Positions 38,199 through 38,236 of a stretch of 64,000 nt of DNA are shown piece after piece. Source of the DNA: Escherichia phage HMD-6. The position numbers were made by a program, and so were the translations under genes. Each line of letters opens with the position of its first letter. Position 1 is the stretch's first letter. Location of the stretch: sequence record PQ505080.1. One strand, given 5' to 3'. Below the pieces are notes generated by a model. The model was not told the DNA's origin. It was given only the letters and a program-made list of their open reading frames with translations, and ran no database searches.

Positions 38199-38236
38199 TA
38201 TTCTACCTCTAAAATGGGGCCGAAGCCCCTTTTAAA

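Follow-up and report, generated by a model that had tools for sequence, protein, structure and literature searches.

Intercistronic hairpins followed by short U-tracts in the minus-strand gene cluster of Escherichia phage HMD-6: candidate leaky intrinsic terminators

The minus-strand gene cluster

The DNA analyzed in this study (the window) is a 64,000-nucleotide stretch of Escherichia phage HMD-6 (accession no. PQ505080.1). A 4-kb stretch around the hairpins described below shows 99.1% identity to Escherichia phage vB_EcoM_SYGMH1 and 98% identity to phage FV3 (Vequintavirinae, Vequintavirus), and is matched by more than 100 rV5-like phages at 90–95%. By its sequence, the window is assigned to an rV5/FV3-type E. 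coli myovirus of the genus Vequintavirus. About 20 records named "Campylobacter phage" (e.g. A12a, A147) also show 92% identity to the window across the nrd region; these are probably rV5-like coliphages, whose host was mislabelled or which represent contaminant carry-over.

The hairpins are located in a cluster of minus-strand genes, which runs from approximately 56.4 kb down to approximately 18 kb (38.5 kb) and corresponds to the rV5 transcriptional unit "genes 82–163". In the gene map of the cluster, constructed by placing the SYGMH1 gene calls on the window and filling the gaps with same-strand ORFs, there are 78 gene junctions, 32 of which are overlapping or at most 5 nt apart; the gap is shorter than 20 nt at 41 junctions and at least 20 nt at 37. 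Intergenic DNA accounts for 8% of the cluster. The two genes flanking the central hairpin encode the chains of a class Ia ribonucleotide reductase (RNR) according to the SYGMH1 annotation, in agreement with the names nrdA and nrdB that an earlier note on this DNA had given them:

38237..40552, minus strand: RNR alpha (nrdA); SYGMH1 annotation, MW883061.1 (99% identical)
37110..38198, minus strand: RNR beta (nrdB); SYGMH1 annotation, MW883061.1 (99% identical)

Hairpins at gene junctions

The four intercistronic hairpins (S1–S4) reported in the earlier note are all present, in place or displaced by a few bases, and each lies between the stop codon of one minus-strand gene and the start codon of the next. 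These elements, together with two further hairpins of the same type (d, terminator score described below), are as follows:

38216..38229, minus strand: S1 hairpin GGGGC-UUCG-GCCCC, with a C(UUCG)G tetraloop, 7 nt past the nrdA stop codon (38237-38239)
38211..38215, minus strand: S1 U-tract A+UUUU, followed by the Shine-Dalgarno (SD) sequence GAGG (38209-38206) and the nrdB ATG (38198)
45214..45233, minus strand: S2 hairpin AGGGAGGC-UUGC-GCCUCCCU, the top-ranked terminator-like site
45204..45213, minus strand: S2 U-tract UUUCAUUUUU, 7 T in 9
30005..30026, minus strand: S3 hairpin AAAGCCCUC-UUCG-GAGGGCUUU, with a C(UUCG)G tetraloop
30002..30007, minus strand: S3 U-tract UUUUAU, whose first three U double as the stem base; 6 T in 9 past the GC core
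53663..53681, minus strand: S4 hairpin AGCCGGG-GCGAU-CCCGGCU, with a 5-nt loop, between the genes 53688..54401 and 53315..53623
53653..53662, minus strand: S4 U-rich tract UUACUUGUUU, 6 T in 9 past the GC core
19429..19452, minus strand: further terminator-type hairpin AAAGAGGGG-UUUUGG-CCCCUCUUU, then UACUAU; d = +8.7; counterpart of rV5 t158
18726..18745, minus strand: further terminator-type hairpin AGGACGC-UCUGUG-GCGUCCU, then UUUCUUUAUC; d = +16; approximately 170 nt upstream of the counterpart of rV5 promoter P162 (18556..18528)

S2 is flanked by genes encoding a DnaQ-like exonuclease (45241..46224) and a Dam methyltransferase (TTG start 45194), and S3 by a ClpP-like gene (30038..31087) and the gene downstream of it (ATG 29986). 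S1–S4 begin 6–13 nt past the stop codon and have stems of 5–9 perfect pairs (5–6 GC pairs) and loops of 4–5 nt; even when A-U and G-U extensions are counted, no stem is longer than approximately 10 bp. They share no common sequence and do not form a REP-like repeat family. At the gathering score, a search of the window against Rfam 15 gave no hit at S1–S4 and detected only a group I intron and six tRNAs, all located elsewhere.

The loops had been described as being of the UUCG or GNRA type. This holds for S1 and S3, which carry C(UUCG)G and thus have a UNCG/GNRA tetraloop with a C-G closing pair, but not for S2 and S4. On the RNA, the loop of S2 is UUGC ("GCAA" is its plus-strand reading) and that of S4 is the 5-nt GCGAU (ATCGC on the plus strand) rather than "AUCG". 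Read in the sense direction, the stems are followed by A-TTTT-AG in S1 (4 T in 9), TTTCATTTTT in S2, (C)TTTTATGAT in S3 and (C)TTTACTTGTTT in S4. A GC-rich stem with a T-run directly behind it on the sense strand is the architecture of an intrinsic terminator.

Folding, placement and T-runs

As proposed in the earlier note, folding energies were compared with those of shuffled controls. S1–S4 have minimum folding energies of -14.1 to -19.8 kcal/mol and z-scores of -2.6 to -3.7, and only 0–1 of 200 dinucleotide shuffles folded as well as the native sequence. The individual values are -14.1 kcal/mol for S1 with its A/U extension (z -3.3), -19.8 kcal/mol for S2, -14.7 kcal/mol for S3 (z -3.7) and -14.3 kcal/mol for S4. 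Intergenic positions are occupied by 12 of the 23 perfect GC-rich hairpins of the cluster (binomial p = 4e-8) and by 11 of the 12 cluster hairpins with a dG of -9 kcal/mol or lower (binomial p = 9e-12). The hairpins are therefore real and their placement is not due to chance. For the hexamer CTTCGG, the window shows no significant enrichment (27 found vs. 18.4 +/- 4.6 expected).

At least 6 T occur in only 2.2% of the sense-strand 9-mers of intergenic DNA (background). The 9 nt past the GC core reach this number in three of the four elements S1–S4 (p = 4e-5) and in five of the six post-stop hairpins of the cluster (p = 3e-8). A d'Aubenton-Carafa-type d-score, calculated with modern energy parameters, was +28 on the sense and -7 on the antisense strand for S2, +14 and -9 for S3, and +6.6 and -12 for S4; S1 scored -16 sense and +4 antisense. 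Positive sense and negative antisense values were also obtained for the hairpins at 19452 and 18745, and every hairpin inside a coding region scored negative. With a simple consensus terminator scan, S2 was detected on the sense strand, and S1 on the antisense strand only.

In the window and seven relatives together, UNCG or GNRA loops were found in 24 of 121 hairpins with a T-run, but in only 17 of the 567 that lack a T-run (p = 1e-9, odds ratio 8). The tetraloops are therefore a property of the terminator class.

Homologous junctions in related phages

For comparison, approximately 40 kb around the homologous genes were taken from rV5_ev147, GAP31 (Seunavirus), BIS47 and Ro1 (Mydovirus), TH18, PcCB7V (Certrevirus), SSBI34 and JLBYU50 (Justusliebigvirus), and 43 IMG/VR loci were added. 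A scan of IMG/VR with the NrdA C-terminus yielded no close Vequintavirus contigs (best 87%), and variation within the genus is covered by three genomes (the window, SYGMH1 and rV5_ev147). The S2 junction of BIS47 and Ro1 was read directly, the tblastn anchor there being a paralogous exonuclease.

The following hairpins lie past the nrdA stop codon, at the position of S1:

Seunavirus and Mydovirus: GGGGC-UUCG-GCCCC, then GUUUU(U)
TH18: GGGGC-GAAA-GCCCC, then UUUUU
PcCB7V and SSBI34: GCCGCCC-UUCG-GGGCGG(C), then a U-run (UUUUU in SSBI34); in SSBI34 followed by a TTGACA...TACAAT promoter
JLBYU50: GGGGG-CUUUGU-CCCCC, then UUUCUU
Felixounavirus: GAGGGUC-GUAAAA-GACCCUC, then UAAAAAUAAC, without a U-tract
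IMG/VR locus L039: a UUCG hairpin without a U-run
IMG/VR locus L048: a GAAA hairpin without a U-run

Vequintavirus, Seunavirus and Mydovirus share all 14 nt of S1 (GGGGCUUCGGCCCC), but the adjoining bases differ and the coding flanks are only approximately 75% identical. The run behind the counterparts of S1 reads AUUUU, GUUUU(C), GUUUUU(G), UUUUUC or UAUUUUU. It is thus the T-run downstream of S1 that is conserved, and not the A-run that the window has upstream of it. The possibility that S1 acts as a terminator on the antisense strand was rejected, since other genera have not kept its antisense T-run. The sense strand is the one supported at each site: by the higher d-score for S2, S3 and S4, and for S1 by the conservation of the sense T-run.

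The post-nrdA hairpin of the Felixounavirus-like phages occupies the same position as S1, but has a T-run on neither strand and is not a canonical terminator. Within the first 45 nt past the nrdA stop codon of the Felixounavirus-like IMG/VR contigs (L018-L053), GAGGGTC-GTAAAA-GACCCTC is highly conserved and is followed by TAAAAATAAC. These and the other post-nrdA hairpins without a U-tract in distant phages show that a hairpin can persist at this site without the features of a canonical terminator.

At the position of S2, past the exonuclease gene, the following hairpins were identified:

GAP31: GGGC-UUCG-GCCC, then UUUUG
BIS47: GGGGC-GUAA-GCCCC, then UCUUCUCUUUCUU
PcCB7V and SSBI34: (G)CCGCCC-UUCG-GGGCGG, then UUUU, with a consensus promoter directly after
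JLBYU50: GGGGC-GAAA-GCCCC, then UUUAUUUUU

No post-exonuclease hairpin was found in TH18. Conservation in relatives, on which the earlier note had made its proposal depend, thus differs between sites: hairpins recur at the S1 and S2 junctions in several genera, whereas S3 is restricted to Vequintavirus among the relatives compared. S4 has the same stem in rV5_ev147 with the loop AUUA, and its junction carries other hairpins with a G/U-rich tail in TH18 and JLBYU50; in Seunavirus and Mydovirus the hairpin at this junction lacks a U-run. In these two genera (loci L003/L004/L005) it reads GGGGTC-TGTATAAT-GACCCC, and an extended -10 promoter element (TGnTATAAT) can be read in its loop.

Where the stems can be aligned (Vequintavirus, Seunavirus, Mydovirus, TH18) they do not vary, and homologous stems contain no compensatory substitutions; elsewhere they are replaced by non-homologous hairpins. 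A compensatory-pair statistic is therefore not computable. Since a hairpin and U-run persist while the sequence turns over, the support from conservation consists in repeated replacement and not in covariation.

Such replacement is also what recombinational swapping would produce. The elements could be palindromes acting at the DNA level: binding sites for proteins, hot spots of recombination or at module junctions, or cruciform-forming sequences. They are perfect inverted repeats, S1–S4 fold equally well as either strand, and promoter-in-stem-loop cassettes are repeated elsewhere in the genome. However, the four palindromes have no common sequence that one protein could recognize, and both the strand-specific T-run and the enrichment of UNCG/GNRA loops, which are stable in RNA, point to a function at the RNA level. 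UUCG gives no comparable stability in DNA. We regard a DNA-level role as very improbable.

Counterparts among the predicted terminators of rV5

The rV5 genome paper (Kropinski et al. 2013, Virol J 10:76, Additional file 4/Table S4; PMC3606486) lists 20 "stringent" rho-independent terminators identified with ARNold and MFOLD. Among these computational calls are t109 (GGGGCTTCGGCCCCATTTT), t099 (GGGGAGGCTTGCGCCTCCCTTTTCCTTTT) and t122 (GCCCTCTTCGGAGGGCTTTTAT), which are S1, S2 and S3, respectively, as found at the corresponding gene junctions of rV5. S1 and S3 are 100% identical to their rV5 counterparts and S2 has mismatches at 2 of 29 positions; S4 is absent from the list of 20 (PMC3606486). 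The ARNold/MFOLD calls of the counterparts of S1–S3 are independent of the d-score calculated for the window. S1–S4 are thus a known kind of element, and three of the four have already been published as predicted terminators. Of the 20 terminators in rV5, 8 carry a UNCG or GAAA loop; a tetraloop is thus a general habit of terminators in this phage.

Promoters and transcription units

Each of the ten sigma-70-type promoters that were predicted in rV5 for this unit is also represented in the window. With ten internal promoters, the cluster is a series of overlapping units and not the single long polycistronic transcript that the earlier note had assumed. In the direction of transcription, the order of elements is as follows:

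S4 - P090 P093 - S2 - P105 P107 - S1 - P118 P121 - S3 - P144 P150 P156 - t158 counterpart (19449) - hairpin 18745 - P162

Terminator-type hairpins alternate along the cluster with groups of sigma-70 promoters. This is a descriptive statement only and the alternation is not statistically remarkable: by our own arithmetic, 5 terminators and 10 promoters in random order would have no adjacent terminators in approximately 15% of cases.

The start codon of the next gene is located 17–45 nt past each of S1–S4, and no promoter fits between any of them and this start codon; the nearest recognized promoter lies 1.5–6 kb further downstream. Any termination at S1–S4 must therefore be partial, and transcription of nrdB, grx, nrdD, nrdG, dam and the ligase region must depend on read-through. 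Some of the genes between the hairpins and the next recognized promoter are essential. Strong termination ahead of several kb of such genes would be harmful, which limits the extent of any terminator function.

Another possibility is that the hairpins act on translation, by insulating the downstream ribosome-binding site from structure in the upstream coding sequence or by uncoupling the cistrons, and thereby set ratios such as NrdA:NrdB. Each hairpin ends 6–40 nt upstream of an SD sequence (in S1, GAGG starts 6 nt past the stem), and at the S1 junction hairpins beside an SD are kept across many phage lineages. On the other hand, they neither include nor occlude the SD or the start codon, and their distance to the SD differs widely among sites. 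Most junctions of the cluster, moreover, have no hairpin at all (gaps below 20 nt in 41 of 78), and the conserved T-run would have no role. A primarily translational function therefore appears improbable.

Proposed function of S1–S4

Taking the above features together, we consider it likely that S1–S4 are partially working Rho-independent (intrinsic) terminators of the host RNA polymerase, distributed along a co-oriented, multi-promoter early/middle cluster. The mechanism of intrinsic termination, a hairpin combined with a weak rU:dA hybrid, is well established. At S1–S4, a GC-rich hairpin would fold in the RNA exit channel once polymerase has passed the stop codon, while the U-tract forms a weak rU:dA hybrid in the active site, and a fraction of the polymerase complexes would release the RNA there. 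In S1 and S3, the extra-stable and fast-folding C(UUCG)G loop may aid the formation of a very short stem. The freed RNAs would carry a stable hairpin at their 3' end, an obstacle to 3'->5' exonucleases, so that each site would both lower downstream transcription and stabilize the upstream message, with substantial read-through into the next genes, including nrdB, the Dam methylase gene and, further on, DNA ligase.

The U-tracts of all four elements are short or interrupted. S1 is the weakest example (d = -16, a 5-bp stem, A between the stem and U4, 4 T in 9) and, with its A+UUUU, is expected to be the leakiest, while S2 is expected to be the strongest. The positions of RNA 3' ends and the efficiencies implied here are predictions from sequence; in the literature searched, no RNA 3' ends, transcriptome or in vitro termination data were found for any Vequintavirus.

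The earlier note had interpreted S1–S4 as mRNA-stabilizing or processing elements, and its broader view that they are RNA-level junction elements creating differential expression along the cluster is probably correct. A stabilizing effect is indeed expected from the 3' hairpin of a terminated RNA, but the sense-strand T-runs had been overlooked. A processing site for RNase III requires an extended duplex of approximately 20 bp or more, for which the stems of S1–S4 (5–10 bp) are too short, and there is nothing in support of endonucleolytic processing. The interpretation as graded expression with a stabilized upstream RNA is thus right on the consequence, and wrong or at least incomplete on the identity of the element.

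In its strict form, the stabilizer reading makes S1–S4 non-terminating, post-transcriptional barriers to 3'->5' exonucleases or processing landmarks, through which upstream RNA outlives downstream RNA, as with REP elements in malE-malF and the puf hairpins. We judge this to be unlikely. The U-tract-free hairpins past nrdA in Felixounavirus and other phages, L039 and L048 among them, keep the stability idea alive, especially for S1 with its own weak U-tract (A + UUUU). For such small hairpins, S1–S4 are of exceptional stability, S1 and S3 have the C(UUCG)G loops first described in T4 mRNA (PMC4371310), and read-through is needed by the downstream genes in any case. What the stabilizer reading leaves unexplained is (i) the T-run specifically on the sense strand past the stem (p = 3e-8), (ii) its retention in relatives in which stems, loops and upstream flanks have changed, and (iii) the consensus promoters directly past the element in SSBI34 and PcCB7V. 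There is also no long duplex suited to RNase III, and since a terminator too leaves a protective 3' hairpin, stabilization is already covered by the terminator reading.

For the post-nrdA site, a more specific alternative can be formulated. Nearly all of the enterobacterial myovirus lineages sampled have a stable hairpin, often with a UUCG or GNRA loop, past the nrdA stop codon, and this hairpin could be a position-conserved post-transcriptional element instead of a terminator. In Vequintavirinae its main role would then be to set the NrdA:NrdB (or NrdA:downstream) expression ratio, either by stabilizing the RNA or by insulating translation, and the short U-run would be of secondary importance. 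We consider this reading unlikely.

Beyond correct annotation, S1–S4 matter little. If they are leaky terminators, they mark likely ends of overlapping transcription units in a phage group that is used therapeutically (rV5/FV3-like), and they would serve as compact, graded terminator parts and in the reading of future RNA-seq data for these phages. A general lesson is that the loop should be read on the transcribed strand and the sequence 3' of the stem inspected: a hairpin with a U-run is a terminator candidate first.

Other structured elements in the window

A second class of intergenic GC hairpins was observed at the following positions:

7344-7362, 9862-9880, 10580-10602, 11877-11891, 13359-13373, 13625-13642, 14347-14364, 14689-14702 and 15019-15032, plus strand
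41289..41267 and 23704..23684, minus strand

Where a sigma-70-type promoter is recognizable (e.g. at 7306, 7986/9824, 41320 and 23741), these hairpins lie a few bases downstream of it, and they are followed by an A/C-rich leader (e.g. AACACAAAGGA) and an SD sequence, not by a U-run. As mRNA 5'-end stem-loops, they would be a better fit to the idea of an mRNA-stabilizing hairpin than S1–S4.

A promoter plus 5'-hairpin cassette is present in two copies (7986 and 9824). Another cassette, of 61 nt, occurs in four copies (67–100% identical) on the plus strand (7774-7834, 8395-8455, 8726-8786 and 12115-12175); a GATGGCC/GGCCATC stem encloses its -35 sequence TTGAC in the loop, and the -10 sequence TAAACT follows. 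Both recall the promoter-stem-loop cassettes of T4-type phages, which are linked to modular shuffling.

The group I intron (62809-63087, plus strand; Rfam RF00028, 81.4 bits, E 4e-19) is located inside the region mapping to the gene for the terminase large subunit; the SYGMH1 terminase CDS does not map to the window as an intact ORF. The gene nrdD (anaerobic RNR; 34912-35661, minus strand) is split around a homing-endonuclease ORF (35059..35568), and a sub-threshold Rfam match to a group I intron (32.9 bits, E 2.7e-6) covers 34959-35193. A CTGCATG-N4-CATGCAG hairpin is common to the nrdD region and the terminase intron (63070-63087). The six tRNA genes are clustered at 60477-61286 (plus strand), two of them near the Rfam threshold.

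Two non-coding regions contain repeats. In one (58015-58095), in the region following the divergent junction at approximately 56.5 kb, TGTCCG/CGGACA inverted repeats overlap in a dense cluster of five, which could be an operator-like or origin-like array. The other (5727-5988; 262 nt) is AT-rich, with repeated TTTTCTGAAA / GATTTTTCGTTTTC motifs and a very stable predicted fold (-50 kcal/mol), and may be the counterpart of the "non-coding" box on the rV5 map or an iteron-like region.

Comparison with known systems

S1–S4 resemble the canonical E. coli-type intrinsic terminator in having a GC-rich stem of 5–9 bp, a loop of 4–5 nt and, 0–1 nt past the stem, a U-rich tract on the sense strand downstream of a stop codon. 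They differ from it in their short or interrupted U-tracts and, in the case of S1, in a stem of only 5 bp. Unlike a terminator at the end of an operon, they are placed between co-oriented genes that still need to be expressed, and are therefore expected to be weak and attenuator-like.

REP elements (malE-malF) and the puf hairpins are intercistronic mRNA stabilizers that have no adjacent U-tract and do not terminate transcription; REPs form a repeated family of imperfect palindromes of approximately 35 bp. In common with these, S1–S4 are stable hairpins at the end of an upstream cistron that could block 3' exonucleases and give unequal expression within an operon. They differ in being mutually unrelated in sequence and in carrying U-tracts.

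Phage T4 mRNA was the source of the first "extraordinarily stable" C(UUCG)G hairpins to be described (Tuerk et al. 1988, recounted in PMC4371310). S1 and S3 have the exact loop and closing pair, likewise in an intercistronic position of a phage, whereas the loops of S2 (UUGC) and S4 (GCGAU) are different. As a structural motif, C(UUCG)G does not by itself define a function.

The nrdA-mobE-nrdB region of T4 provides a direct precedent: a hairpin followed by a short poly(U) terminates 30–50% of the transcripts, as determined by 3'-RACE and RNase protection, and regulates the gene that follows nrdA (Wilson and Edgell 2009, PMC2790892). This terminator was judged to be weak because its poly(U) is short (PMC2790892). 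Like S1, it combines a 4-nt loop with a short poly(U) in a polycistronic message containing nrdA. Unlike S1, it is contained in the mobE coding region and its stem measures 9 bp, and the two elements show no sequence homology. T4 also has a separate nrdB promoter, while none is visible in the 17 nt before the nrdB start in the window. Partial termination on a larger scale has been described for phage LUZ7, in which more than 60% of the mapped terminators are less than 50% efficient and sequential read-through shapes expression (PMC9163698).
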